A DNA stretch of 52,667 bases, taken from Candidatus Nanohaloarchaea archaeon (GTDB taxonomy: Archaea > Nanohalarchaeota > Nanosalinia > Nanosalinales > Nanosalinaceae). The DNA is taken from assembly GCA_042217695.1 (NCBI GenBank), contig JBDGSE010000036.1, forward strand, positions 1 to 52,667. Direction: 5' to 3'. Under the pieces are notes generated by a model, which did not search any database, was not told where the DNA came from, and was given only the letters and a program-made list of their open reading frames with translations. The position numbers were made by a program, and so were the translations under genes. Shown in pieces: positions 4,012-52,667 of the stretch. Position 1 is the stretch's first letter. Each line of letters starts with the position of its first letter.

Positions 4012-5190
4012 ATGGAGTTTGACCGTGTCCCCCGGATAGCAAAGTACCTTTCTGCGACTTTCCTTCTGTCCTGGTTCGGACGGTCCACGGTATGGTTTTT
4101 CCTGCCCATCTACTTCGAGCAGCATATAGCCAGTGTGTTCCTGATAGGTATAGTTATGTCCCTGCCCTCTGCTATACCCATACTCCTGGACATCCCTACA
4201 GGGAATCTCGTGCAGAGGGCGGGCGAGAAGATAGTTATCTTTCTTGGGTTGGTGGCGCAGATAGTCCCGGCCGCGCTCTACATCACTGCCGCGCCGGCGA
4301 TCCTTGTGCTTGGAAAGGCCGTGGAAGGGCTTGGAAAGGTGCTGATGTGGAACGGGGGATGGAGTCTCTCGCTCAGGAGTTCGGATGAATCGGTTGAATC
4401 CGAATCCGTCTCCGTTTTCCTGCTCGGGGTGAACCTGGCACGGATAATCGGGCCGATAATCGGCGGGTACCTGATAGCGTCCAGCGGCTTCCCCATAACG
4501 TTCAAACTGTGGATGTTCACCGCATCTCTCGCAGTGCTTGTGTTCATCGGCTATATCGGTGTCGACAGCGAGAAGCCGTTCGGCAGGTCGATGGGGGAAC
4601 TGCTCCAGAGGAAGACGTACCTGGATGACTGGCGGCATCTCCGCGACAACTGGGAGCAGATGAAGTACCCTTTCGCACTGATATTCCTCTACTCGATAAT
4701 ATTCTCATTCTACTGGCTGGCCGTCCCACTTCTCCTGAAACAGGTCGATGCAGGTTACCGGGTGATGGGTGTGATATTCGGAGTTGCAGCTATCCCGAAG
4801 GCATTCCAGTTTGTTTTCGGCGATATAGCGGACCGTTTCGGGAGGTTGAAGACTCTGCTTGTCCTCAGTGCAGGTCTGACTCCTGTGCTGGTGGCCATGA
4901 ACTTTCTGTCAGGTATAATGGTGGTCGGTGCAGCTTTCTTCGTTGCCAGACTGCTTTCCTCCGGCATGTCTCCAGCTATACACGCAGTTTTCGATGAGAA
5001 GGCTCCTGACGAGCTGGAAGGCGAACTCACGGGTTTCCTGGAGTTCTTCAAGCACTCGGGCCAGGCTCTGGGACCTTTTGTCGCGGGCACCGTTGCCTCG
5101 GTATGGAGCATAAACGTCTCGTTCCTGGCAGCCGGGGGCGTCTCCATTCTCATATTCGTGGCGTCGGTCTACGGTATAAGGAGCCAGTAA
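4012..5190 (+). CDS. MFS transporter
   Basis: About 12 hydrophobic helices; GDIADRFGR motif A. Confidence 0.9.
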   Translation: MEFDRVPRIAKYLSATFLLSWFGRSTVWFFLPIYFEQHIASVFLIGIVMSLPSAIPILLDIPTGNLVQRAGEKIVIFLGLVAQIVPAALYITAAPAILVLGKAVEGLGKVLMWNGGWSLSLRSSDESVESESVSVFLLGVNLARIIGPIIGGYLIASSGFPITFKLWMFTASLAVLVFIGYIGVDSEKPFGRSMGELLQRKTYLDDWRHLRDNWEQMKYPFALIFLYSIIFSFYWLAVPLLLKQVDAGYRVMGVIFGVAAIPKAFQFVFGDIADRFGRLKTLLVLSAGLTPVLVAMNFLSGIMVVGAAFFVARLLSSGMSPAIHAVFDEKAPDELEGELTGFLEFFKHSGQALGPFVAGTVASVWSINVSFLAAGGVSILIFVASVYGIRSQ

Positions 5191-5289
5191 TCGTCAGGTA
5201 TCCGGCCAGAGATCTCTGACGGTACCAGTCATGGATTCATGAACGGTCTGGGCCTGGATGGAAGATGTACTGTCCTGTGGATTTCAGCA

Positions 5290-6012
5290 TCAGATCCTCC
5301 CGATCTCGGGGAACTCGAACAGGCCTGCCTCCCTTGAAACCGCTACTGCTTCAAGCTCATCGATGTCGACCTGTTCCCTCAGGACAGGCGAGAGGAGCTC
5401 CTTTTGCGGCATCTCGTTTACCTGGGATCCTTCGGAGACCTGGGCGTAGGAGGGCATCACGATGATATTGCTGCCGTCCCTCATCTCGCCGTACAGGAAG
5501 CAGTCCACTTTCTCGGACACACCTATCTCGTCCTCCAGTTTCAGGGCGGGATGTTCGTGACCGATGACCAGTGTGTCGTAACCGTTTCCGACTTTCTCGT
5601 GGCCGTGGGCAAAGGTCACGCCGTCCTCGGAGTAGTTCTCCTGGAGTTCAAGGCCCTCTCTGTCAACGGTCTCCTCTATCATCGTGTCGTGGTTTCCCTT
5701 TACCAGTATGACCTCGTCAAACGTTTCTTTCGCGAACTGGAGAAATTCCTGGACCTCGCTTCTCTCCGCGTAACTTGTCCGGAACTCGTTCTTCAGGTCT
5801 CCGTTGACCAGCAACCGGGAGGCCTCTGTCTCTCTGCGGGCGTCTTCAAGCTCCTCCCTGAGGTCGTCCAGCTGGAACTCGGGGACGTAGCTGCCCATCG
5901 AGGTCATGCTGGCCTCCAGCCCCAGGTGAAGGTCGGCGATCACTATCATCTCGAGTCCTGGATGGTGGAGTGCGGGCAGAGAGTCTATGGTTTCGAACTC
6001 GAAGAGTTCCAT
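5290..6012 (-). CDS. Calcineurin-like metallophosphoesterase (COG1407-type)
   Basis: DLHLG, GDLK, GNHD, HGH, GHEHP motifs. Confidence 0.9.
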   Translation of the reverse strand: MELFEFETIDSLPALHHPGLEMIVIADLHLGLEASMTSMGSYVPEFQLDDLREELEDARRETEASRLLVNGDLKNEFRTSYAERSEVQEFLQFAKETFDEVILVKGNHDTMIEETVDREGLELQENYSEDGVTFAHGHEKVGNGYDTLVIGHEHPALKLEDEIGVSEKVDCFLYGEMRDGSNIIVMPSYAQVSEGSQVNEMPQKELLSPVLREQVDIDELEAVAVSREAGLFEFPEIGRI

Positions 6013-6049
6013 GGAGGATGTTGTGTTCGAAAACTTTTTCTCTATGTTT

Positions 6050-6907
6050 TCAGGAGTTCAGCAGGTTCCACACCGACAGGAATGACTCGAAGAAGTCCTG
6101 GCCGGTGGATAGCTGCATGTATTCGGCGCCGTGGCTGTGCGCCACTTCTTCAAGCTCCGAGATGTGTTCCTGGAGCCTTCCACGGTAACGTTCCTTTGTC
6201 CGCTTCGAGAGGTACGTCCTCAACCGGGAGTCTGATTCGGGGTCGGTCAGTATCTTGTCGCCCTCCATCCCCGGGTCAAGTTCGGTGGGGTCGAAAACAT
6301 TGACAAGCAGGGTATCGGTGTCCTGCAGGCCCTCGATACCGGACTCGATCGATTCGATATCGCTGAGGAAGTCCGAGAGGATGATGACCGCGGACTTGTT
6401 CTCGATCCTGGAGGAGTACTCTGTTACGCACCGCTCTATCCTGCTCTCCGGCGTCTTCCGTATCTCGTTCAGGGTGTCAACTATCCGGGGGAGGTTGGAG
6501 TTCCTTCTACCCGAGGATATGTCGGTCAGAGTTTCAGAGAAAACGGAGAACCGGTATCTGTCGTTCGTGTTCAGCGCCATGTAAGCCAGTGCTATCCCGA
6601 GTTTGCCGGCGTAGTCGTACTTTTTCGGGTCCCCGTAGTTCATAGAACTGCTCCTGTCAAGCAGGATGTGGAGCGTGACGCTCTTCTCCTCCTCGTACCT
6701 CTTTATGAAGTAGTCTCCGGTGCGGGCGTAAGCCTTCCAGTCTATCCTGCGTATGTCGTCGCCGGGGACGTACTGCTTGTGGTCCTTGAAAACCATCCCG
6801 TGTCCTGTTGATTCCGAGGACTGCTCTCCCTCCTGCATCTCGACGGAGTTCTTCTTCAGGGCCAGCTGGAAGCGGTCCAGCTCGTCCAGGAAATCTATCT
6901 CTATCAT
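6050..6907 (-). CDS. DUF58 / vWA-domain protein
   Basis: YVPGDDIRRIDWK, DRSSSM MIDAS, ILSDF. Confidence 0.9.
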   Translation of the reverse strand: MIEIDFLDELDRFQLALKKNSVEMQEGEQSSESTGHGMVFKDHKQYVPGDDIRRIDWKAYARTGDYFIKRYEEEKSVTLHILLDRSSSMNYGDPKKYDYAGKLGIALAYMALNTNDRYRFSVFSETLTDISSGRRNSNLPRIVDTLNEIRKTPESRIERCVTEYSSRIENKSAVIILSDFLSDIESIESGIEGLQDTDTLLVNVFDPTELDPGMEGDKILTDPESDSRLRTYLSKRTKERYRGRLQEHISELEEVAHSHGAEYMQLSTGQDFFESFLSVWNLLNS

Positions 6908-7869
6908 ACCGCGTGTACGATCTCCTCGATGACCTTGTCCTCGTCCTTGCCTTTTTTCTCGGCCTGGAAGCTGAGCCCTATCCTGTGCCTGAGAACGGGT
7001 TTGGCCATGTTGTTGACATCCGAGACTGATACATGGTTTCTCCCCTCCACGAGCGCTCGGCCTTTAGCCGCGAGTATGAGGTTTATCGTCGCCCTTGGGG
7101 AGGCGCCGTAGTCAAGGTTCTCGTTTTCCCGGGTCCTCTTCACTATCTTGATGGCCCGGTCCCTTATGTCGTCCGCGATAGGCACCTGCCGGGTGAACTC
7201 CTGCAGACGTTTCACGGAGGGTTTGGATACCACCTGTTCCAGGTCGGGATCGTAGTCGAGTTCCGAGGTAAACCGGTCCACTATCTTTCTTTCCTCGTCC
7301 TCGGAGGGGTAGTCCAGCTTCACCTTCATCATGAACCTGTCGCGCTGTGCTTCAGGCAGGGGATAGGTGCCTTCCTGGTCTATCGGGTTTTGCGTCGCCA
7401 TCACGAAGAACGGCTCCTCCAGCTTGTATGACTGGTTGCCGACTGTCACCTGTTTCTCCTGCATCGCTTCAAGCAGCGCCGACTGTGTCTTCGGAGTAGC
7501 CCGGTTTATCTCGTCGGCGAGTATCATGTTCGCGAAAATGGGGCCCTTCTGGAAAACGAACTCTGTCTCCCCGGAGGACTCATCGATTATGTGCGTCCCG
7601 GTGATGTCGGACGGCATCAGGTCCGGCGTGTTCTGGATACGTGAGAAGTCAAGCCCGACGACCTCTGAGACGGTTCTTATCATCTTGGTCTTTCCCATCC
7701 CCGGGTTGGATTCGAGAAGTATGTTGCCGTCGCAGAGGATCGAGACCAGTACCTGTTCGAGGACCTTTTCCTGGCCCACCATCACTTTCCCGACTTCTTC
7801 CCTGATTTCAGCTAGTTTCTGGTTTACTGTCTCGTACTTGCCGGCCTCGCTCTGGCTTTTTATGTCCAT
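6904..7869 (-). CDS. moxR: MoxR-family AAA+ ATPase
   Basis: PGMGKT Walker [46 protein letters not shown]. Confidence 0.95.
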
Positions 7870-7907
7870 GGAAATGATTGGACATCCTAAATATTTAAAT
7901 CCGTGAA

Positions 7908-8648
7908 TCAGCTGAAATCCTTGATCGCCAGGCTGTACCTCTTCGCCAGCGCCAGGTCCTCCTGGAGGCCTCGCGGCGCAGCCTTGAAGACTGCTTCTTC
8001 AGTGGAGCCGTATGGTATCCTGGAGGTGCCGGCCTTCGCCTCGCCCTCGATGGAGAAGTTTATATCGGCGGAGTAGTCTATCTGTTCCACGTCCCTGAAG
8101 ATGCTGGAGGAGTTCCTGAGGGTGAAGTTGTCATCACCCCCCGAGAAACGGTCGAGGAAGTCGAGGCTTGAGACCGCATCATCCCTCGAGGTTATCTGGA
8201 AATCGGTCATGCCGGATACGACGGTCAGGAAACTCAGACCTCCCACGAGCAGGATCTTCTGGATTATCCTTTTACTGGGGATGATGCTCTCCGAGGACAC
8301 TGACCGGGCGCGTGAGACCACCTCGTCGAAGAGGGCCTGTGACACCACGTTCTGCTGGTCGATGTTATCTCTCGCCGTTCTCAGGACCTCCCGGAGCTGG
8401 GGGTTCTCCTCCTCGTAGATCTCCAGCCGGTAGTTGTAGGCCCTGTAAGCGAGGTCTCCCGCTCCGAAGACCAGTGTCAGCACTGCCAGTAGAGGAGGGT
8501 TGGCGAAGGTCTCGGTCAGTCTTATCGAGAATATGAACAGTAAAAGGTTGGTGGACAGGAAGAACAGCAGCGAGTCAAGACTTGCCTGTATCAGGTTGAC
8601 CTTGATGAACTCCCGTTTGAGCTGTTTGAGCAGTTTCTCTATCTTCAC
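7908..8648 (-). CDS. Membrane protein of the archaeal MoxR/DUF58 cluster
   Basis: Three TM segments; EEENPQLREVLRTARD motif; position directly upstream of moxR. Confidence 0.65.
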   Translation of the reverse strand: MKIEKLLKQLKREFIKVNLIQASLDSLLFFLSTNLLLFIFSIRLTETFANPPLLAVLTLVFGAGDLAYRAYNYRLEIYEEENPQLREVLRTARDNIDQQNVVSQALFDEVVSRARSVSSESIIPSKRIIQKILLVGGLSFLTVVSGMTDFQITSRDDAVSSLDFLDRFSGGDDNFTLRNSSSIFRDVEQIDYSADINFSIEGEAKAGTSRIPYGSTEEAVFKAAPRGLQEDLALAKRYSLAIKDFS

Positions 8649-9124
8649 GGGTTATAACCCCATTCCTGGCATTCCGAAGCTGCGCTTTCGGTCAGGTTGG
8701 AGTCTGATGTGCAGATGAACTCCAGGCTCTCCGACAGGTTCTCGTTTCTTTCTGTCAGGTTTTTTACCCGGCTCTCCAGCATCTCTATGGTGGCGGACTG
8801 GTTCTGTATGAAACCGGTCTTGTTCTCCAGATTTGACTGCAGGCGGTCTACTTTCCGCGTCAGGTTGTTTATCCTTGCAGTGGTTTTCTCCAGGCTGCTG
8901 TTGAGGGTCTCCAGCCTTGAACTCAGGTTGGAGGTCTTCGACTCCAGGTAGTTGATCCTCTGTTTTTTCTGTTCCAGGGTGTTGCTGAGCTCTTTCTTGG
9001 TTGAAACCAGTTCCTGTAGCTGTGACTGGTAAACGACCGACATCCCGGCCAGTAGCGAAAGCACCAGCACAGTAGATATCAACAGGAAAGGGTTGAGCCT
9101 TCTCTTCAGAAGCGGTGTCTCCAT
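8645..9124 (-). CDS. Membrane-anchored extracellular coiled-coil protein
   Basis: N-terminal TM, long heptad region, 8 N-X-S/T sequons, C-terminal Cys pair. Confidence 0.75.
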   Translation of the reverse strand: METPLLKRRLNPFLLISTVLVLSLLAGMSVVYQSQLQELVSTKKELSNTLEQKKQRINYLESKTSNLSSRLETLNSSLEKTTARINNLTRKVDRLQSNLENKTGFIQNQSATIEMLESRVKNLTERNENLSESLEFICTSDSNLTESAASECQEWGYNP

Positions 9125-9215
9125 TCCGTTATCCCTCTAATCCTAGTTTCCTCCCCATTCATTTATCCTTTTATGGACTCGAGATTTTAAGTAAAACTCC
9201 GACCATCAATAACAT

Positions 9216-10829
9216 GTGAGCGAAGACACCTGCAAATTCGGCCACACCTTCATGGTGGACGGGGCCGGGGACAAGATACACAGAAAAATCCGGGATGGAG
9301 AGGTAGAAACCCTGGAAGATGTAAGAGACGAACTGGGCAACGACTTCCTTAAGCCACTGTTCGGCAGCCCGCAGAAACACCTCAAGATCTCGGGAGGGTC
9401 TTCGGGCAAGGCCTATGGCGCGATTATTGGAGCGGCCGACAAGTTCCACGATGATCTGGACTACGACGTTTCGCGCTCCGAGGAACGTATCTTCGTATCG
9501 CCGCAGAACCAGATGCACCAGTCTTTCATGCAGAGAAAGAGAGAGGCGGAGAACAACGTAAAGGAAACGATGCAGAGCTACGAGCACCTGCTTAAACAGA
9601 AACACATGCTTGAACACGATATAAGAAAGCTGCGTTCCAGGGCCGAGGCCTTCGATTCGAGGGACGAGACTCTTCTCAAGGCGGACTTCGTGGAACTCGT
9701 CGATGGGAGAGGAGGTGGGACACAGCAGGGCGCCGAGGAGATGCCGCTGAAGTCGTTCCGGGACAACAACATATACCCCACGATAGTCGCGGACTTCAAC
9801 GAGATGGAGTCGGCGGACGACCTGAAACCCGAGAAGAAGGGAGGTACCGGAAAGCTCGCCGATCTGCCGAGGAACGAGAAAGCCATACTCCGGAAGAAGT
9901 GGACGATGTACGAGAAGTGGAAGGACATGTACGGCAGCGAAGTTAACCGGAAACTCCGGGAACTGAAAGGTCAGCTGAAACGTGTCGAGAAATCAATAGA
10001 GGAGACGAAGAAGTGGCTGGAGCCCTACATCCAGGACATAGTGCAGATCCACGAAAAGGAGAGAGGGGATTACGCCGACGAGATGAACAGCTACGTTATA
10101 TGGAAGGGATACGCCTCGATGGAGAGAAACCTGGAGTTCATAGGCCACAAGGGCCTGGTGAAGAAAGGAGAGGATATCGTGGTGGCGGAGGACGAGGAAC
10201 CCACCCACTACCGGATAGTCTACATCCACGGGGTACACGTGAACCTTGCCGGCGGATCCCAGCCACAGGACCCCTCACAGGGGCCATCAACCGCGGTAAT
10301 ATTCGTTCACAAGGCGATTGTCTGCAAACACGTCTTCGAGAACATCTTCCAGGCCAAGATTAACAAGAAAGAGGAACGGTTCGAGCAACTGATGGATGAG
10401 TACACCGGAGAGTTCAAATCCTCCAATGGCGAAGAACTGAAGGAGGCCCGGAAAGAGGCGGAGATGAGTGTCCGCGAACTCCGGGAGAGGATAGAGTCAA
10501 GAGTCGAGGGAAACGTCCCTCTGGAGGTGTCCTCCCGGATAAGACGGGTCGAAGACGGTCTTGACCCGGTGGAGACGCTGAGCGAGGAATACGTCGAGGC
10601 CATCGACGAGATACTCGATACGGAGTTCGCCAGTGAAGGTGGAGGGGGAGGTTCGGAGAATATGTACTCCGATTTCCAGCAAACACTGCGAGAGTTCGTC
10701 GGACTGGTGGACGACTACCACCTGACAGGTGACCAGGCGAAGACCGCTATGGGCGACCTCCGTGCAGACATCAAATACAACTTTTACATCGACTACAAAC
10801 TCGGTCAGGGCCTTTTCACGATGAAATAA
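9216..10829 (+). CDS. Uncharacterised coiled-coil protein with embedded XRE-type HTH
   Basis: 537-aa ORF, TAATG overlap with next gene; GEELKEARKEAEMSVRELRERI...SRIRRVEDG. Confidence 0.7.
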   Translation: MSEDTCKFGHTFMVDGAGDKIHRKIRDGEVETLEDVRDELGNDFLKPLFGSPQKHLKISGGSSGKAYGAIIGAADKFHDDLDYDVSRSEERIFVSPQNQMHQSFMQRKREAENNVKETMQSYEHLLKQKHMLEHDIRKLRSRAEAFDSRDETLLKADFVELVDGRGGGTQQGAEEMPLKSFRDNNIYPTIVADFNEMESADDLKPEKKGGTGKLADLPRNEKAILRKKWTMYEKWKDMYGSEVNRKLRELKGQLKRVEKSIEETKKWLEPYIQDIVQIHEKERGDYADEMNSYVIWKGYASMERNLEFIGHKGLVKKGEDIVVAEDEEPTHYRIVYIHGVHVNLAGGSQPQDPSQGPSTAVIFVHKAIVCKHVFENIFQAKINKKEERFEQLMDEYTGEFKSSNGEELKEARKEAEMSVRELRERIESRVEGNVPLEVSSRIRRVEDGLDPVETLSEEYVEAIDEILDTEFASEGGGGGSENMYSDFQQTLREFVGLVDDYHLTGDQAKTAMGDLRADIKYNFYIDYKLGQGLFTMK

Positions 10830-13372
10830 TGAAATACAGCAAATACATCCTGGACTCCGTGAAGGAGGCGTTCGGCGACACCGATGAGAGCAGCGGGTTC
10901 CCCGATCTGAACTATGTGGTGGGTAACACCTCTGGCCTGGACGTGGCGCCTGATGTCCCCTCGCCGATGAGCCAGAGGATCGGCCAATTAGCGCAGCGCG
11001 GCGGGAGCGTGATGGAGCTGATAATATCGAACCCGGCGACGTTCCAGGTCGACAAGGCAGAGATGATGAACACGATAGACCAGCTTGATATCGATGTTTC
11101 CATCCACTCCGATCCCTCCACTGGTTTCGCCTCTGCCTACCGCACGAGGGGAAGGCAGGGTGCAGGATACGACACCGCCCACGAATACTTTACCCGTTAC
11201 CTCAAGCAGGTGGCGATATTCAAGAGCGAGGTCGAACAGCGGGGTATCGACTTCGACATACAGCGCATAAACCCGCATATCTCCACCACAGGGCTCCCAT
11301 CGCTTACAGAGAGGATGGCCGACGACGTGGGGGTGGACCCGTTCGGTTTCGAGATGGGAAAGCTCGGTAAGGACTCCAGGGCCGAGAGAAACAAAGATGG
11401 ACAGAACATCTTCGCGAACGAGGAATTCCTGCGCCGTTTCTACCACATGTTCCTGACGGAGAGAACGCCCGAGCCCAAGTGGAGGCTGTTCACCAACTAC
11501 CTTTCCCGGTACTCCCGAAAGTTCGACAGGATTTACAGGGACGCCCAGAGACAGGCCTGCGACTACTACTTCCAGGCCGGCGTGGATAGGGAGGAAGACG
11601 ATCCGTTGATGACCAAGGTCGCGCTGGTATCAAGCGCGGCAAGGGCGGATACAGGCGCCCAGACAGAATGGCTGGACCTGGTGAGCGACCCCCTTGATGA
11701 GTCCGTGGAGGTGCCCATGGCGGTTGCAAGGCAGCAGGCCAACGTGACAAGAGACATAACAACGCTTGAGGATGTCAACGACCTGCTGGGTATGAATACC
11801 CGGGTATCAAGGCTTTCCATGCTTCCGGAGGCAGTTCACAGGATAAGGAACGGGAAATGGGCTAGCAGGGAGATAGATATCGAGAACACCCCGGATGCGA
11901 AGCTCCAGAGGATAAGAGAGATGGCTCTCGAGGCAATCAGGGAACGTCTTGAAGAGCTCTGGGAGGGTCACGGCGACAAATTCCTTATCTCGGTCGAGGG
12001 TAAGAGGAGCGCGATATCGAACCACCTGGACATCGAGGTACAGCAGATACTGCAGTCCGCGGTAAAGGTTGGGAAGGCGGAGGACTTTGAAACCGGCGAC
12101 GAATACGAACTGGACGAAGCTGCCGAAAAAGTGGTGATGGGTAAGAAAGAGTTCTTCATGGAGGACGATGAACACGTTGAAGAGCGTTACCACAGCATGA
12201 TGGAGGAGATCGGGCGACAGTACGACCGACTGATGTGGATGGAGTCCAACCTGTTCTACTACATAATACCTGCGTGGATGACCACTTCCTCGAAAGAGTA
12301 CGAGAACCATCCTGGATGGGACGCACCCGAGTTCATCTGGAAGACCCTGGTCGAACGCAAATGGGGCGACAGCTACGATCTGGACCTGACCGAGCCCGAC
12401 AAAGAAGGCGGCTACTTCCAGGCACTGGAGAACCGTAAATTCCAGATGGACGTTGCCGCCGCGGTAGGTTCTGTCTACGTCTGGGGCCACTTCACCCAGA
12501 AGAAGAAGCACTTCAAGATAGACAGGGAGCAGTACGTCGACGACCTGGAAGGCGAGTTCACATGGATAGAATGGATGAACCAGTTCGGAATAGGGGTGAA
12601 CATGGAGACGATGGTGGGTGGAGCAGACCAGCTGATTAAGATCTGGAGGCCCAAGGACATCGTCACCGCGTGCAGGGCTATAAACATGACTGCGCGCGAC
12701 GAACTCGACGAGATACACCCGGATCTCTACGGCAGGCCGGCCAAGTTCACCATCGACCTTGAGCACACCGCGTCGTTCGGCGTCGACCCGTGGAAGGAGA
12801 TGGAGGTGCTGATAGAACAGGAAAAAGAACTCGCGAGGAGCGGGTTCATAGACGCAGACCCGGAGAAACCTCTTGCGGACATCCTGAGGAACTGGCACAT
12901 GATAAAACCCGGGCTTGAAACCCAGCAGAGCGACTCCAGGCACGGCCCCTGGGCCAGGGGAGACACGCAGATGTACGAGTGGCTGTACAATATGGTGGAC
13001 GCAGGTTTCGCCCGTGGAGATGAGGTGGCGTACCTGATGTACGAGGTCGGTGGGGAACAGCGGGGCACGGTTTACACGGCGAGGATAGCCATGAACCTGG
13101 TAGAGCTGGGCGTGGAGCCGGATGAACTGGACCCCACGGAGATAGATCCTGACGGCAACTACGACAACGAGAAAGAGGCGCTGATGGCGCGTTTCTTCGG
13201 GATGGACAGGGCCAGTATCGACCAGGAATGGGCGAAGATCGAGGAGCACGCGTTCGATCCGTTGAAGGGCCTTCTCGAGGCGGAGGAGTTCGACTACACC
13301 TGGTCCGGCAGGGCGGCCCTCGATGAAGGGGAGAAGAGGCCGGGTGAATGGGAGGGAGAGGAGTACAGGTAG
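10829..13372 (+). CDS. Large xylose-isomerase/endonuclease-IV-like TIM-barrel metalloenzyme with long insertion
   Basis: SIH(93)SDP, NPH(150), NME(593)T, TID(643)LEH(646), WH(690)M, RH(705)GP, MYE(739). Confidence 0.7.
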   Translation: MKYSKYILDSVKEAFGDTDESSGFPDLNYVVGNTSGLDVAPDVPSPMSQRIGQLAQRGGSVMELIISNPATFQVDKAEMMNTIDQLDIDVSIHSDPSTGFASAYRTRGRQGAGYDTAHEYFTRYLKQVAIFKSEVEQRGIDFDIQRINPHISTTGLPSLTERMADDVGVDPFGFEMGKLGKDSRAERNKDGQNIFANEEFLRRFYHMFLTERTPEPKWRLFTNYLSRYSRKFDRIYRDAQRQACDYYFQAGVDREEDDPLMTKVALVSSAARADTGAQTEWLDLVSDPLDESVEVPMAVARQQANVTRDITTLEDVNDLLGMNTRVSRLSMLPEAVHRIRNGKWASREIDIENTPDAKLQRIREMALEAIRERLEELWEGHGDKFLISVEGKRSAISNHLDIEVQQILQSAVKVGKAEDFETGDEYELDEAAEKVVMGKKEFFMEDDEHVEERYHSMMEEIGRQYDRLMWMESNLFYYIIPAWMTTSSKEYENHPGWDAPEFIWKTLVERKWGDSYDLDLTEPDKEGGYFQALENRKFQMDVAAAVGSVYVWGHFTQKKKHFKIDREQYVDDLEGEFTWIEWMNQFGIGVNMETMVGGADQLIKIWRPKDIVTACRAINMTARDELDEIHPDLYGRPAKFTIDLEHTASFGVDPWKEMEVLIEQEKELARSGFIDADPEKPLADILRNWHMIKPGLETQQSDSRHGPWARGDTQMYEWLYNMVDAGFARGDEVAYLMYEVGGEQRGTVYTARIAMNLVELGVEPDELDPTEIDPDGNYDNEKEALMARFFGMDRASIDQEWAKIEEHAFDPLKGLLEAEEFDYTWSGRAALDEGEKRPGEWEGEEYR

Positions 13373-13406
13373 TTTTTACTGAGGAGTAATAAATAATTGA
13401 CAAAGG

Positions 13407-13413
13407 TTTATAA
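13407..13413 (+). promoter_or_regulatory. TATA box with purine-rich BRE upstream of the nucleotidyltransferase
   Basis: CAAAGG-TTTATAA about 33 nt before ATG 13446. Confidence 0.6.
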
Positions 13414-13445
13414 GTTTCGTGAAGGAAGACACTACCGTGGTCTCC

Positions 13446-14681
13446 ATGAGTTCAAAGGACAAGATGAAAGAGATGCGCGAGAAATCGCAGGAAAGACGTA
13501 TCGAGGCCGTGGAAGAGTTCTCGGAGAAACTTAAGGACAAGCTCGGCGACAAGGTAAAGGTAGTCGCGGTCTGGGGCTCCGTCCCGAAAGGAGAACACGG
13601 CTATGAATCCGACATCGACACTCTCGTTGTGCTGGATGACACCAAGCTCCAGAATGATGTCCCCGAGGACGCAAAGAAGAAGATACGTAGAAAGGTCACA
13701 GACCTCGCCAAGGAGACCGATGAAAGGATAACCATACAGTACTTCCCGTTCCTCACCGATTTCTGGGACTCCCTTAGGAAGGGGGAACCGCTGGCCATCG
13801 AGGCCGTGAGAAACGGGGAACCTGTCTACGACACCGGTATATTCATGCCGGCGAAACGCTTACTGGAGAGGGGAAAGATCTCCGGCACACAGGAGTCAGT
13901 CCGGAAAAGACTGAAGCTCGCCGCCACGGGATACAAGAAGGCGGAGAAGAACCTGAAGTCATCCATCCCCCACAAGCTGGAACAGGTGATGGCGAACGCC
14001 GGGCAGGCACCTATCATGCTGGTCGGTAAGACCCCGCCAGGCAAGGAGAAAGTGCCGGACACCCTCGAGGAGATGTTCGTCGAGAAAGACATGCTTGAAG
14101 AGGAATACGTTGAACTTGCGAGAGACATCTACGAATTCGCGGACCAGGGAGAGAAAGACCCCTCCGAGGTGAAGGGTGCAGAAGTCGAGGAACACCTGGA
14201 GAAGACCAACGAGTTCGTGGAAAGGATGCACAAACTGGTGTCCCAGCTGGGCGCACGGAAAAAGGTCAAGGGGATTGTGGATGACTACAAGCGTTTCCTG
14301 AAGGCGAACGTTGCCGCACTGAAGTCGAAGGGTGTCGAACCACCGGAGGACAAGGAGGACCTGCCCTCGGTGGTCGAGCAGAACCTGGACGTTGACGAGG
14401 AGCACGTGGAGATGTTCGACCGCTGGGAATCCGTTATCGAGAAAGTGAAGAACCGCGAACTGGACGAAGTCAACGACAAGGAGATATACGAACTGAAGAA
14501 CGAGACCCGCGACTTCGTGTCGGAGATCGGCAAGGATCTGAAGAAGGCCAAGGAGGGCAAGAAGATGGCTCCCGATATGGACGCTTCCTCGATCGCGAAG
14601 GCCGCCGACACCGGGGAAGTCGTGCCAGACCTGGAAAAAGAGGCGGAGAAGAAGGTAAATGAGGAAGAAAGTGACGAGTAG
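13446..14681 (+). CDS. Pol-beta-superfamily minimal nucleotidyltransferase fused to HEPN-like helical domain(s)
   Basis: WGS...SDIDTLVVLDD (GS/DxD) motif; helical C-terminal region; ATG 13446 preferred over GTG 13419. Confidence 0.85.
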   Translation: MSSKDKMKEMREKSQERRIEAVEEFSEKLKDKLGDKVKVVAVWGSVPKGEHGYESDIDTLVVLDDTKLQNDVPEDAKKKIRRKVTDLAKETDERITIQYFPFLTDFWDSLRKGEPLAIEAVRNGEPVYDTGIFMPAKRLLERGKISGTQESVRKRLKLAATGYKKAEKNLKSSIPHKLEQVMANAGQAPIMLVGKTPPGKEKVPDTLEEMFVEKDMLEEEYVELARDIYEFADQGEKDPSEVKGAEVEEHLEKTNEFVERMHKLVSQLGARKKVKGIVDDYKRFLKANVAALKSKGVEPPEDKEDLPSVVEQNLDVDEEHVEMFDRWESVIEKVKNRELDEVNDKEIYELKNETRDFVSEIGKDLKKAKEGKKMAPDMDASSIAKAADTGEVVPDLEKEAEKKVNEEESDE

Positions 14682-14688
14682 TGTAGAG

Positions 14689-15081
14689 ATGGAAAAATTC
14701 CCTGTCGGAAGACTCCGGGGATCACTGCTTTTCGTACGCTACGACTGGAAACCCGGAGAACTGTACGAGATATTCTCTGGACTGGAACAGGACCTGCAGG
14801 GACTTGCCGCAGAGGTCGAGACCGAACCGGTGTTCTTCCTGTACGACGAGGAAGACTGGGAGACGGATTCGATCGATGACCTGCTCGATGGAGACACCTT
14901 TCACGTGGGCTGGGGCCGGCTGTCCGCCGACTCCGAATACTTTGAGGGCTCTGCGACATACCTGCCCGCTGTGTCAGGGAACAATGCGTCGATAGAGGCG
15001 GAATTCGAGGTGGAGGACAACTACGAAAGGGAGTTCCGCGAGGTCCTGGAGGATAACGGCTTTAAAGAATACCGGGTTTAA
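14689..15081 (+). CDS. Acidic hypothetical protein
   Basis: ATG 7 nt after the NTase stop; typical codon usage. Confidence 0.6.
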   Translation: MEKFPVGRLRGSLLFVRYDWKPGELYEIFSGLEQDLQGLAAEVETEPVFFLYDEEDWETDSIDDLLDGDTFHVGWGRLSADSEYFEGSATYLPAVSGNNASIEAEFEVEDNYEREFREVLEDNGFKEYRV

Positions 15082-28605: not shown

Positions 28606-29967
28606 ATGGCGTGGAAAAGGCTGAGAGAGAAAGTTCTGGACGAGAACTACCCCTCGGAAGAGGAGCTGGAGAGCACACGGGAGAAGTACAGGGAGCTCTC
28701 CAGGTTTATAAACAGCGAGTTCGGGCTTGAAACCCATTTTGCTGGTTCTGCAGGCAGGGAGACCTGCATAGCTGGTGACAAGGATATTGACCTGTTCGTT
28801 CTTTTCCCGGAGGATACGCCGCGCCGCGAGCTCGAGGAGGACGGACTGCGCATAGGAAAGGCTGTATTCAGAGAGTTCGACGGAGAGTACACGGTGGAGT
28901 ACGCGGAACACCCGTATATAAAGGGAGAGATTGATGGCCACGAGGTCGAGATAGTGCCGTGTATAGATACTGACCCGGAGGACATACAGAGCAGTGTGGA
29001 CAGGACGCCTCACCACTCCAGCTGGGCGGAGGATAACCTCGACGAGGAGCAGAAAAAGGACGTGGTTCTCCTGAAAACGTTTCTCCGGGCAGAGGGTATC
29101 TACGGCTCCTCGCTGAAGACCCGGGGCTTCTCCGGGTACCTCTCCGAGATACTTGTAGCGCACTACGGCAGCTTCCGTCAGCTTACAGAGGCGGCGAAGA
29201 ACTGGCCCGAGAAAAAGGTAATAGACCCCGAGAACCATCACTCGACGCTACCGGCCGAGCTCAGGGAAAAGTTCGAGGAGGACAATCTGGTGGTGATAGA
29301 CCCGGTCGACCCCGCGAGAAACGTTGCCTCGGTCCTCTCCCGTGAGAACTACTCCCGGTTCATATACAATAGCTGGAGGTTTGAACAGGGCCCGGGGATG
29401 GAGTTCTTCCAGGAACCGAAGGTGGAGTTCGACCGTTTCGAGCTGGAACAGGAGATCGACAGAAGGGCAGATTTCCTGGTGCTCGAGTTCGAGAACCCTG
29501 GAGAAGTGGAAGATGTGGTGTATCCCCAGTTAAGGAAGACTGTGAGACGTCTGCGCTCGGAGCTTGACAGGAGGGATTTCCGGGTATTCCAGCAGGGATT
29601 CCACCAGTCCGAGGTCACAAGGATCTTTTTCGAGCTGGAAAGGGAGCTTCCTGCCGTGGAGTACAAACCAGGCCCCAAGGTATTCCATGGTGAGGACCAC
29701 CTGCAGCAGTTCACGGAAAAATACGGGGACGTGTTCGTGGAGGACGACAGGCTCTACGCGAGAGTGGAGAGAGAGTACCGCGACGCAAGGGAGTTCCTCA
29801 GAGACTTCCTTGACTCAGATGCGGAGGGACTCAGGGAGAAGGGGATCCCCAACCATGTCGCGGAGGAGATGACCGATTACAGCTTTACCAGGCCGGTCGT
29901 CGAGGACGAAAAATGGTTAAAGTATCTGGCGGAAAAACTTCATGTGGCAGAATATGAGCGACGTTAA
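28606..29967 (+). CDS. cca: Class I CCA-adding enzyme
   Basis: GS..R.T....DIDLF, YAEHPY, VDRTP.H, GFSGYLSE, VIDPVD..RNVA. Confidence 0.96.
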   Translation: MAWKRLREKVLDENYPSEEELESTREKYRELSRFINSEFGLETHFAGSAGRETCIAGDKDIDLFVLFPEDTPRRELEEDGLRIGKAVFREFDGEYTVEYAEHPYIKGEIDGHEVEIVPCIDTDPEDIQSSVDRTPHHSSWAEDNLDEEQKKDVVLLKTFLRAEGIYGSSLKTRGFSGYLSEILVAHYGSFRQLTEAAKNWPEKKVIDPENHHSTLPAELREKFEEDNLVVIDPVDPARNVASVLSRENYSRFIYNSWRFEQGPGMEFFQEPKVEFDRFELEQEIDRRADFLVLEFENPGEVEDVVYPQLRKTVRRLRSELDRRDFRVFQQGFHQSEVTRIFFELERELPAVEYKPGPKVFHGEDHLQQFTEKYGDVFVEDDRLYARVEREYRDAREFLRDFLDSDAEGLREKGIPNHVAEEMTDYSFTRPVVEDEKWLKYLAEKLHVAEYERR

Positions 29968-51598: not shown

Positions 51599-51731
51599 GG
51601 GCCTGTAGCTCAGTCTGGCAGAGCACCGGCCTTTTAAGGCCTGGCTCCTCTTGCGAGGGGCTGGCCCAGAAGACCGCGAGGTCTTCGTCGAAGACAGCCG
51701 GTAGTCGCGGGTTCAAATCCCGTCGGGCCCA
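51599..51731 (+). tRNA. tRNA-Lys(UUU) with 59-nt intron at 37/38 (51637-51695)
   Basis: Acceptor GGGCCTG/CGGGCCC, anticodon stem CCGGC/GCCGG, TTCAAAT T-loop; canonical BHB (CTTT/GAAG helix, TA|A and AC|A bulges); no encoded CCA. Confidence 0.93.
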
Positions 51732-52522: not shown

Positions 52523-52667
52523 GGACCGGTAGCTTAGCCCGGTTAGAGCGCCACGCTGATAACTGGTTACGCCCAGTTAGCAGGCAAAGACCTGCTCCGC
52601 AGGTCGACGAGCTATGCTCGTCAGATCAGACACGTGGAGATCCCCAGTTCAAATCTGGGCCGGTCCA
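52523..52667 (+). tRNA. tRNA-Ile(GAU) with 70-nt intron at 37/38 (52562-52631)
   Basis: Acceptor GGACCGG/CCGGTCC, anticodon stem CCACG/CGTGG, T-arm CCCAG-TTCAAAT-CTGGG; CTGA/TCAG central helix with AC|A bulge. Confidence 0.93.

Follow-up and report, generated by a model that had tools for sequence, protein, structure and literature searches.

A 52,667-nucleotide stretch of DNA from Candidatus Nanohaloarchaea archaeon (GenBank assembly GCA_042217695.1, contig JBDGSE010000036.1; this whole stretch is called the window below) carries, between positions 6,050 and 15,081, two sets of genes that diverge from a short intergenic gap. We are highly confident that these are two separate units: a rightward trio encoding, in order, a 537-residue protein (P537), a split TIM-barrel protein (TIM847) and a nucleotidyltransferase (NTase420), and a leftward MoxR-DUF58 operon. 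This confidence covers the anatomy of the region, that is, the co-occurrence of the trio genes, their order, their mostly single-copy state, their conserved catalytic residues and the broken linkage to MoxR. The order of partner protein, split barrel and nucleotidyltransferase (NTase) is common to most sampled genomes from three lineages of DPANN archaea, organisms that have shed most of their metabolism and to which few genes are specific. The genes of the trio are as follows.

9216-10829, forward strand: P537, 537 residues, first gene of the trio.
10829-13372, forward strand: TIM847, 847 residues, an endonuclease-IV/xylose-isomerase-like barrel.
13419-14681, forward strand: NTase420, 420 residues, NTP_transf_2 (Pfam); the true start is likely Met10, at 13446.

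Among 70 Nanohaloarchaeota genomes, that of the window included, 65 carry TIM847, 68 carry P537 and 66 carry the NTase, mostly as single copies, and each of the three was present in all 28 genomes that are at least 90% complete. Up to 20 kb around the barrel gene was taken from 40 of the 64 other TIM847-positive genomes, picked for spread and for long contigs. P537 stands before the barrel in 38 of these 40 loci, the two misses being short contigs, and the NTase lies downstream of the barrel in 35, with four of the five misses ending at a contig edge; the NTase thus belongs with the P537/TIM847 pair, as an earlier note on this DNA had supposed. NTase420 is the most conserved member, at 54-83% identity across Nanohaloarchaeota, with 28-57% for P537 and 24-55% for TIM847 among the loci. 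Linkage counts beyond these fetched loci were made by hand from coordinates.

The same arrangement is found in Aenigmatarchaeota. A search of 1.84 billion representatives returned 106 relatives of P537; 20 of these were looked up, giving three clusters from Aenigmatarchaeota, one from Thaumarchaeota and 16 without a taxon. A genome scan returned 80 loci, mostly from Aenigmatarchaeota or unclassified archaea, and the eight that were read show a P537-like gene followed by barrel and NTase in five cases, followed by the barrel in two, and alone in one. In a sample of the Aenigmatarchaeota phylum each trio gene is present in 60 of 61 genomes, the remaining genome lacking all three. P537 adjoins the barrel in 53 of these 60 genomes, and a same-strand NTase lies within about 2.5 kb past the barrel in 43 (both hand counts). 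A short (~290-residue) and a long (~400-residue) NTase stand in tandem in 19, likewise by hand count.

The five full-trio loci read from Aenigmatarchaeota also carry two paralogous genes of about 165 codons, divergently upstream of the P537-like gene (L074:5333-6360, L112:4471-6121, L121:5630-6636, L125:5642-6623 and L148:5626-6699). Their products match each other (hhalign 98.7) and have no match in Pfam or NCBIfam. Both may belong to the module as well. Kinship with the P537 core found no support (hhalign probability 0.1), and CC159, the coiled-coil protein that opens the leftward operon of the window, was ruled out as their orthologue at 15% identity.

The third lineage was sampled through 80 genomes including Woesearchaeota, whose phylum we take to be Nanoarchaeota in GTDB. 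The NTase profile matches all 80, usually as a copy of about 270 residues and one of about 620, and the P537 profile matches 66. The P537-like proteins found here, whose family counts 1,691 sequences or more, are homologous to P537 (hhalign probability 99.3, E 7e-21). A profile of the Woesearchaeota's own barrel matches 78 of the 80 genomes, seven of which supplied its seeds, and in 45 of the 66 genomes with a P537 match this barrel closely follows the P537-like gene. Twelve loci were fetched because their P537 and NTase matches lay close together; all seven that were read have a P537-like gene, no or one helical ORF (open reading frame), a protein of 600-750 residues and a short NTase, in that order. 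Two of the barrels were translated, and both are split and carry the full endonuclease-IV-type motif set. The view of the earlier note that P537 and TIM847 resemble a gene pair of other DPANN archaea, Woesearchaeota among them, therefore holds. An NTase paralogue of ~620-650 residues with a second MNT-like part (L163:10851-12659) is near-universal in this sample and occurs in six of the 70 Nanohaloarchaeota genomes (G003, G004, G005, G019, G020 and G068). One assembly, G071, holds an Aenigmatarchaeota-type trio on contig C109 and Woesearchaeota-type genes on C12, C50 and C60, which points to a mixed bin or a transfer.

Several observations weigh against a single, tightly kept unit restricted to DPANN archaea. 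One weak P537 match is labelled Thaumarchaeota, although it is partial and sits on a 2.4-kb contig. The NTase is the least tightly linked member: 17 of the 60 Aenigmatarchaeota-phylum genomes have no NTase within about 2.5 kb of their barrel gene, and in some Nanohaloarchaeota the two genes are separated by as much as 2-4 kb of intervening DNA. The TIM847 profile matches none of the 80 genomes of the Woesearchaeota sample at E<=1e-8, and the Woesearchaeota barrel profile aligns weakly with that of TIM847 (probability 71, E 3.6e-5). The orthology of the Woesearchaeota barrel therefore rests on gene order and architecture, and is the least secure part of the comparison.

We propose, tentatively and with confidence short of even, that the trio works as a reversible protein-nucleotidylation switch, with the NTase as writer and the barrel as eraser, acting on or around P537. 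NTase420 would be built like kanamycin nucleotidyltransferase or GlnE/GlnD, its HEPN-like helices serving substrate binding and dimerisation rather than RNA cleavage, and would transfer a nucleoside monophosphate from the triphosphate to a hydroxyl of a protein acceptor, most simply P537 or a target held by P537. The multi-metal barrel of TIM847 would hydrolyse that phosphodiester and so reset the switch, and P537, together with the helical arm of the barrel, would form the scaffold on which writer, eraser and target are gathered. Opposing activities on one bond are the best fit for an NTase and a multi-metal, phosphodiesterase-type barrel that are co-inherited, along with a partner that is not an enzyme, in a genome whose Nfo and CCA-adding enzymes are encoded by other genes.

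The model of TIM847, the candidate eraser (pLDDT 85.6, pTM 0.84; 26 sequences), predicts barrel strands at 29-34, 61-65, 89-93 and 144-147, and then at 589-593, 638-643, 686-691 and 734-738, the barrel being split between strands 4 and 5 by a mostly helical insert of ~440 residues (about 150-590). Conservation is complete, or at least 90%, at H93, H150, E593, D643, H646, H690, H705 and E739, and the counterparts of these ligands, H646 excepted, are invariant in a two-phylum alignment. Positions were mapped on what we take to be the nine-residue ligand list of the trinuclear site of endonuclease IV, and a by-eye comparison with the motifs of the genome's own Nfo finds eight of the nine metal-ligand positions kept. 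The C-terminal tail (811-847) is conserved, yet has a pLDDT below 50, and may fold on a partner. TIM847 shares with endonuclease IV (Nfo; PF01261 superfamily) and with MJ1311 (3wqo) a TIM barrel and the order of its His/Glu/Asp metal ligands, but it differs from Nfo in its helical insert, its conserved tail and its silence with TIGR00587. That Nfo model gave no match for TIM847 (E<=0.1) or five relatives (E<=0.001), whereas the genome's own Nfo scores 267 bits; since a canonical Nfo is encoded separately, TIM847 was ruled out as the missing Nfo of the genome.

Other comparisons of the barrel are less specific. Nothing in Pfam or NCBIfam matches TIM847 at E<=0.1, PF01261 is over its cut-off in four of seven Aenigmatarchaeota orthologues, and sequence searches of the PDB with TIM847 and with its Nanohaloarchaeota profile gave nothing meaningful. 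Aligning the barrel profile by hhalign to the one Nfo sequence of the genome told little (probability 12). Foldseek gives barrel matches at a probability of about 1 but with E>0.01, and the lead from the Atlas stands at 0.89. Three points tell against an endonuclease-IV-type eraser: the Foldseek list is headed by ketose 3-epimerases and glycosidases, and has endonuclease IV at rank 49; no Foldseek match reaches E<=0.001; and the ninth ligand position, the Asp before the last His, varies between D, H and A. In two Nanohaloarchaeota genomes the locus is irregular, through assembly error or decay: the barrel ORF of G055 (L040) is 597 residues long with much of the insert absent, and in G061 (L039) the P537 coding sequence is divided between two frames, with another, partial barrel 30 kb away.

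The epimerase matches raise the question of whether the trio instead salvages a small molecule such as a host cobamide, nucleotide-sugar or cofactor, with a CbiR-like phosphodiesterase or sugar-epimerase barrel whose product the NTase activates. CbiR and the ketose epimerases do belong to the same barrel superfamily, and among PDB sequences MJ1311 (3wqo) comes nearest to the Woesearchaeota barrel profile (E 6e-11). However, the CbiR model NF041277 is silent on TIM847 and on five relatives, and both the large helical insert and the constant 500-residue coiled-coil partner would be superfluous for small-molecule chemistry. Furthermore, the conserved histidines at strands 3 and 4 and at position 705 exceed a single-metal epimerase site, on the ligand sets that we assume for the two kinds of site. 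We consider salvage distinctly improbable, and return to the nucleotidylation switch for the evidence from its putative writer.

NTase420 has a Pol-beta-type MNT domain with G53-S54 and D65-x-D67. These four residues are invariant in alignments of the family and make up the GS-x9-10-DxD adenylyltransferase motif. Two HEPN-like helical repeats without R-x4-H follow the MNT domain; the second appears from the alignment, and is consistent with short paralogues that end at about position 290. In some relatives the helical part is named UPF0332 by JGI ('nucleotidyltransferase/UPF0332'), which we take to be a HEPN family; Pfam HEPN gave no match on NTase420 itself. The R-x4-H RNase motif is absent from all 22 Nanohaloarchaeota NTases aligned and from all seven short Woesearchaeota NTases aligned. 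In the PDB, kanamycin nucleotidyltransferases come closest in sequence, with matches that span about 50-60 core residues, and poly(A) polymerase matches only at E 0.04. Together, the loss of the RNase motif and the layout resembling kanamycin nucleotidyltransferase make a protein or small acceptor more likely than RNA cleavage. The point on the other side is that R-x4-H is intact in four of the five Aenigmatarchaeota NTases read, so that those proteins may have an RNase role.

That motif also counts in favour of regarding the trio as a domesticated, fused MNT-HEPN toxin-antitoxin system, in which the MNT domain would AMPylate its own HEPN RNase and the barrel would reactivate it. The parts of the literature consulted describe fused MNT-HEPN systems regulated by oligo-AMPylation (PMC13000451) and suggest a toxin-antitoxin origin for the DPANN family (PMC6393860). 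Nevertheless, R-x4-H is missing here and throughout the Nanohaloarchaeota set despite strong conservation of the protein, NTase420 scores 16.5 with the MntA model against a cut-off of 60, and a distribution of 66/70, 60/61 and 81/81 genomes is not patchy. This origin therefore seems to us highly unlikely. As far as the sources for type VII HepT/MntA and fused MNT-HEPN toxin-antitoxin systems were seen (PMC7641770, PMC13000451), the likeness to the trio lies in the domain pair and in the protein-nucleotidylation chemistry, whereas NTase420 differs in having no RNase motif, mostly single-copy vertical inheritance and fixed partners.

An alternative product of the NTase would be a nucleotide second messenger, a cyclic or linear oligonucleotide made by the NTase, degraded by the barrel and sensed by P537 as receptor or effector. 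Messenger systems usually pair a synthetase with a phosphodiesterase in one operon, and the NTase core has weak matches to a PADLOC cyclase model (NTase420, E 2.3e-6) and to Hailong HalB (its relatives, E about 1e-5). Both matches are limited to the generic MNT core, however, and those in NCBIfam are far under cut-off. P537 has no known ligand-binding domain, and near-universal single-copy inheritance is unlike defence signalling. P537 and TIM847 have no PADLOC match, and neither NCBIfam nor PADLOC gave an over-cut-off match for P537, TIM847, NTase420 or the 140-residue acidic ORF that follows the trio. We judge a messenger improbable, and prefer protein nucleotidylation as the activity of NTase420. 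As a side result, NTase420 was ruled out as a missing CCA enzyme: the only TIGR03671 match of the genome (window 28624-29811) is in another gene, that of the archaeal CCA-adding enzyme, which lies in the window itself, at 28606-29967.

The candidate scaffold and target, P537, is modelled (pLDDT 87.2, pTM 0.77; alignment of 91 sequences) with a predicted beta-alpha-beta/beta-beta-beta-alpha core into which a long antiparallel coiled-coil arm is inserted. The arm would be formed by helices 99-147 and 219-277 with a helical tip between them, and the most conserved residues of the protein, D135, D163, F194, K228 and W235, sit at this tip. No Pfam family is common to the 91 family members, and no whole-fold match was found by Foldseek, VIA-align or the Atlas, from which novelty of the fold does not follow. 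The best structure matches (Z 11.1), from a comparison that hardly reached the alpha/beta core, are confined to about 100-297 and are tied among unrelated hairpins; within this scope, any likeness to SMC, ESCRT-III or prefoldin may be no more than that of a generic helical hairpin. The helix-turn-helix (HTH) by which the earlier note had characterised P537 is present, though not as its defining domain. An XRE-like HTH, which the Pfam range and the helices of the model locate at about 403-467, is weak by hidden Markov model (HTH_31, E 0.044, under cut-off) and matches SinR and C.BclI by structure at a Foldseek probability of 1.00. It is missing in distant relatives and is thus a lineage-specific addition.

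The HTH, the endonuclease-IV-type ligand set of TIM847 and the R-x4-H motif kept in Aenigmatarchaeota would each suit nucleic-acid end processing. Here, the barrel would clear blocked 3' ends of RNA or DNA (phosphate, cyclic phosphate or adducts), the NTase would extend the 3'-OH, and P537, by its arm and here also by the HTH, would be a nucleic-acid-binding scaffold. Nfo has 3'-repair activity, and Pol-beta-family enzymes perform tailing. The genome already encodes Nfo and CCA enzymes, however; TIGR00587 is silent on the barrel and five relatives, distant P537 relatives have no HTH, and the best matches of NTase420 are small-molecule and protein NTases rather than poly(A) polymerase. End processing is a credible alternative that we nonetheless think unlikely.

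As in kanamycin nucleotidyltransferase, GlnE and GlnD, an MNT core in NTase420 is followed by non-RNase HEPN-like helices, although its sequence matches to this group span about 50-60 core residues. In GlnD the writer is accompanied by an eraser that is a metal phosphohydrolase. The eraser of the trio, by comparison, would be a separate endonuclease-IV-type barrel and not an HD domain or a second NTase domain, and no link to PII or glutamine synthetase was seen for the trio. The pairing of an NTase with a phosphodiesterase is of a known kind; one component, P537, belongs to no named family.

The NTase family itself has been flagged before. As far as it was seen, a survey of 47 DPANN-specific clusters found an MNT-HEPN fusion to be unexpectedly conserved, in a housekeeping context (PMC6393860). 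This cluster, cls.004259 (NEQ050, MNT-HEPN; 36/67 genomes), is probably the NTase420 family, and cls.004340 (NEQ484, 'alpha helical protein'; 35/67 genomes) may be P537. The likeness lies in the MNT-HEPN fusion, the restriction to DPANN archaea and the unusual conservation, whereas NTase420 differs by its second helical repeat, and the passages of that paper that were seen hold no operon, partner or mechanism. The parts seen of a second paper do not mention the trio operon (PMC10266531). We found no description of the trio, only this flag on the NTase family, in literature whose coverage leaves out most subscription papers and supplements.

The remaining features of the region are as follows.

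6050-6907, reverse strand: DUF58 gene, the MoxR partner (Pfam DUF58, E 2e-33; weak vWA match, DxSxS motif).
6904-7869, reverse strand: MoxR AAA+ ATPase (Pfam AAA_3, E 1e-62, and AAA_lid_2, E 2e-19).
7908-8648, reverse strand: DUF7502 membrane protein, 246 residues (Pfam DUF7502).
8645-9124, reverse strand: CC159, a 159-residue coiled-coil protein with an N-terminal membrane anchor, first gene of the MoxR operon.
9125-9215, no strand: divergent intergenic region of 91 nt between CC159 and P537.
14659-15081, forward strand: acidic ORF, 140 residues, a local insertion between NTase420 and atpD.

The leftward unit, CC159-DUF7502-MoxR-DUF58, places an AAA_3 and AAA_lid_2 ATPase beside a DUF58/vWA gene and so has the MoxR-DUF58/vWA layout. 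Among such chaperone operons it is an ordinary member, accompanied by DUF7502 and a membrane coiled coil, though it differs in having no BatA-like vWA gene; we take its ATPase to be of the MoxR-proper subfamily. CC159 has a hydrophobic stretch at ~12-32, and eight N-x-S/T sequons among its 15 asparagines. The earlier note had joined both units into one system, in which MoxR-DUF58 would metal-load or assemble TIM847/P537 and tie the trio to a glycosylated surface structure. MoxR-vWA pairs are assembly chaperones, and of the 46 other genomes of the family that hold both genes, 21 have DUF7502 beside P537 (a hand count; contig breaks may account for part of the 25 negatives). Adjacency extends over seven genera and to five of eight single-contig genomes, which speaks against a clean separation of the units.

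Nonetheless, this linkage is confined to one family. The block adjoins the trio in 12 of 24 same-family loci and in none of the 16 loci from other families, of which 11 include 3 kb or more of upstream sequence, and DUF7502 is next to P537 in none of six other-family genomes holding both. By hand count, 14 of 20 genomes from other families, most of them with the trio, gave no match for DUF7502; G004, which is 93% complete, has a full trio and no DUF7502 or close MoxR match; and no MoxR or DUF58 gene was found among the scanned neighbours in eight Aenigmatarchaeota loci. Flanking housekeeping genes are equally or more syntenic, the ATP-synthase operon adjoining the trio in 18 of the 24 same-family loci and thus being a more constant neighbour than MoxR. 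In three single-contig genomes the block is intact at 147-586 kb from the trio; where DUF7502 lies elsewhere, MoxR is still directly behind it (G032, G050 and G065). The DUF7502 family also matches Haloferax volcanii and Methanosarcina acetivorans among 14 controls. The block is intact elsewhere, was not detected in G004 and includes a family, DUF7502, that is found outside DPANN archaea; it is therefore a self-contained unit, and its adjacency is synteny in part of one family. On these grounds we reject CC159, DUF7502, MoxR and DUF58 as parts of the trio system, and regard a MoxR-matured complex as very improbable.

Two observations concern the neighbourhood of the block. An MFS transporter and a TIGR00024 phosphoesterase (window 4012-6012) travel with it in all 12 loci that carry it. 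In Nanohaloarchaeota loci without it (L031:7167-7715, L051:6425-7735, L054:12115-13970), one to three genes for low-complexity proteins stand divergently upstream; their products share a short helix at the C-terminal end, Q-N-x-x-I/M-I/L-x-L-L, and are possibly an older neighbour of the trio.

On the other flank, the acidic ORF was seen beside the trio in one of 40 loci, and we reject it as a member of the conserved unit in which the earlier note had placed it. It gave nothing in Pfam or NCBIfam at E<=0.1, and has the thinnest support of the eight ORFs, a single homologue in a neighbour locus at 32% identity. All eight ORFs have relatives in other genomes, and are therefore not chance ORFs.

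The layout in the earlier note was accurate, with all eight ORFs at their positions and the divergent gap at 91 nt. The ORFs of P537 and TIM847 share one base, at 10829, as expected of a TRATG junction. A TATA-like TTTTAAGT, read by eye, lies at 9185-9192, 23 nt upstream of the P537 start. An out-of-frame ATG with an immediate TGA (9214-9219) overlaps the GTG start of P537, and the ORFs of its relatives mostly begin M-S-x, so that the GTG is either natural or a small assembly slip. Rfam shows no RNA in this locus or in three related loci. Elsewhere in the window, tRNA matches of 133 and 145 nt (51599-51731 and 52523-52667) probably contain introns.

The composition of the region is normal, with a GC content of 0.53-0.57 over 6001-15000 against 0.52-0.59 for the window. 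Searches of viral contigs (a single protein and one alignment), of plasmids with P537 and of phages with TIM847, all of limited sensitivity, returned no relative, and within the reach of these queries we reject a mobile-element origin. The trio appears to be vertically kept and not an island, in agreement with the earlier judgement.

Overall, these results connect the MNT-HEPN enzyme class with constant partners in each of three lineages, and single out both a candidate for the opposing enzyme, whose catalytic residues are defined, and a candidate for the target. The MoxR operon should stay out of models of the trio. Retention of the trio in near-minimal symbiont genomes suggests that it controls a core process; the choice between a dormant and a growing state is one such process, named here as speculation. 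In its broadest form, which we think rather unlikely as a whole, the trio would be an ancestral, near-universal signature machine of DPANN archaea that has no counterpart yet described, a protein-nucleotidylation switch in which a new class of eraser, the split endonuclease-IV-like barrel, acts on a new family of coiled-coil scaffolds. It would control a core stage in the life of the symbiont, for instance its awakening when it meets a host, its division or its dormancy. If the trio does act as a nucleotidylation switch, archaeal symbionts would have in it a lineage-defining regulatory circuit, and its barrels would make up a new family of de-nucleotidylases.

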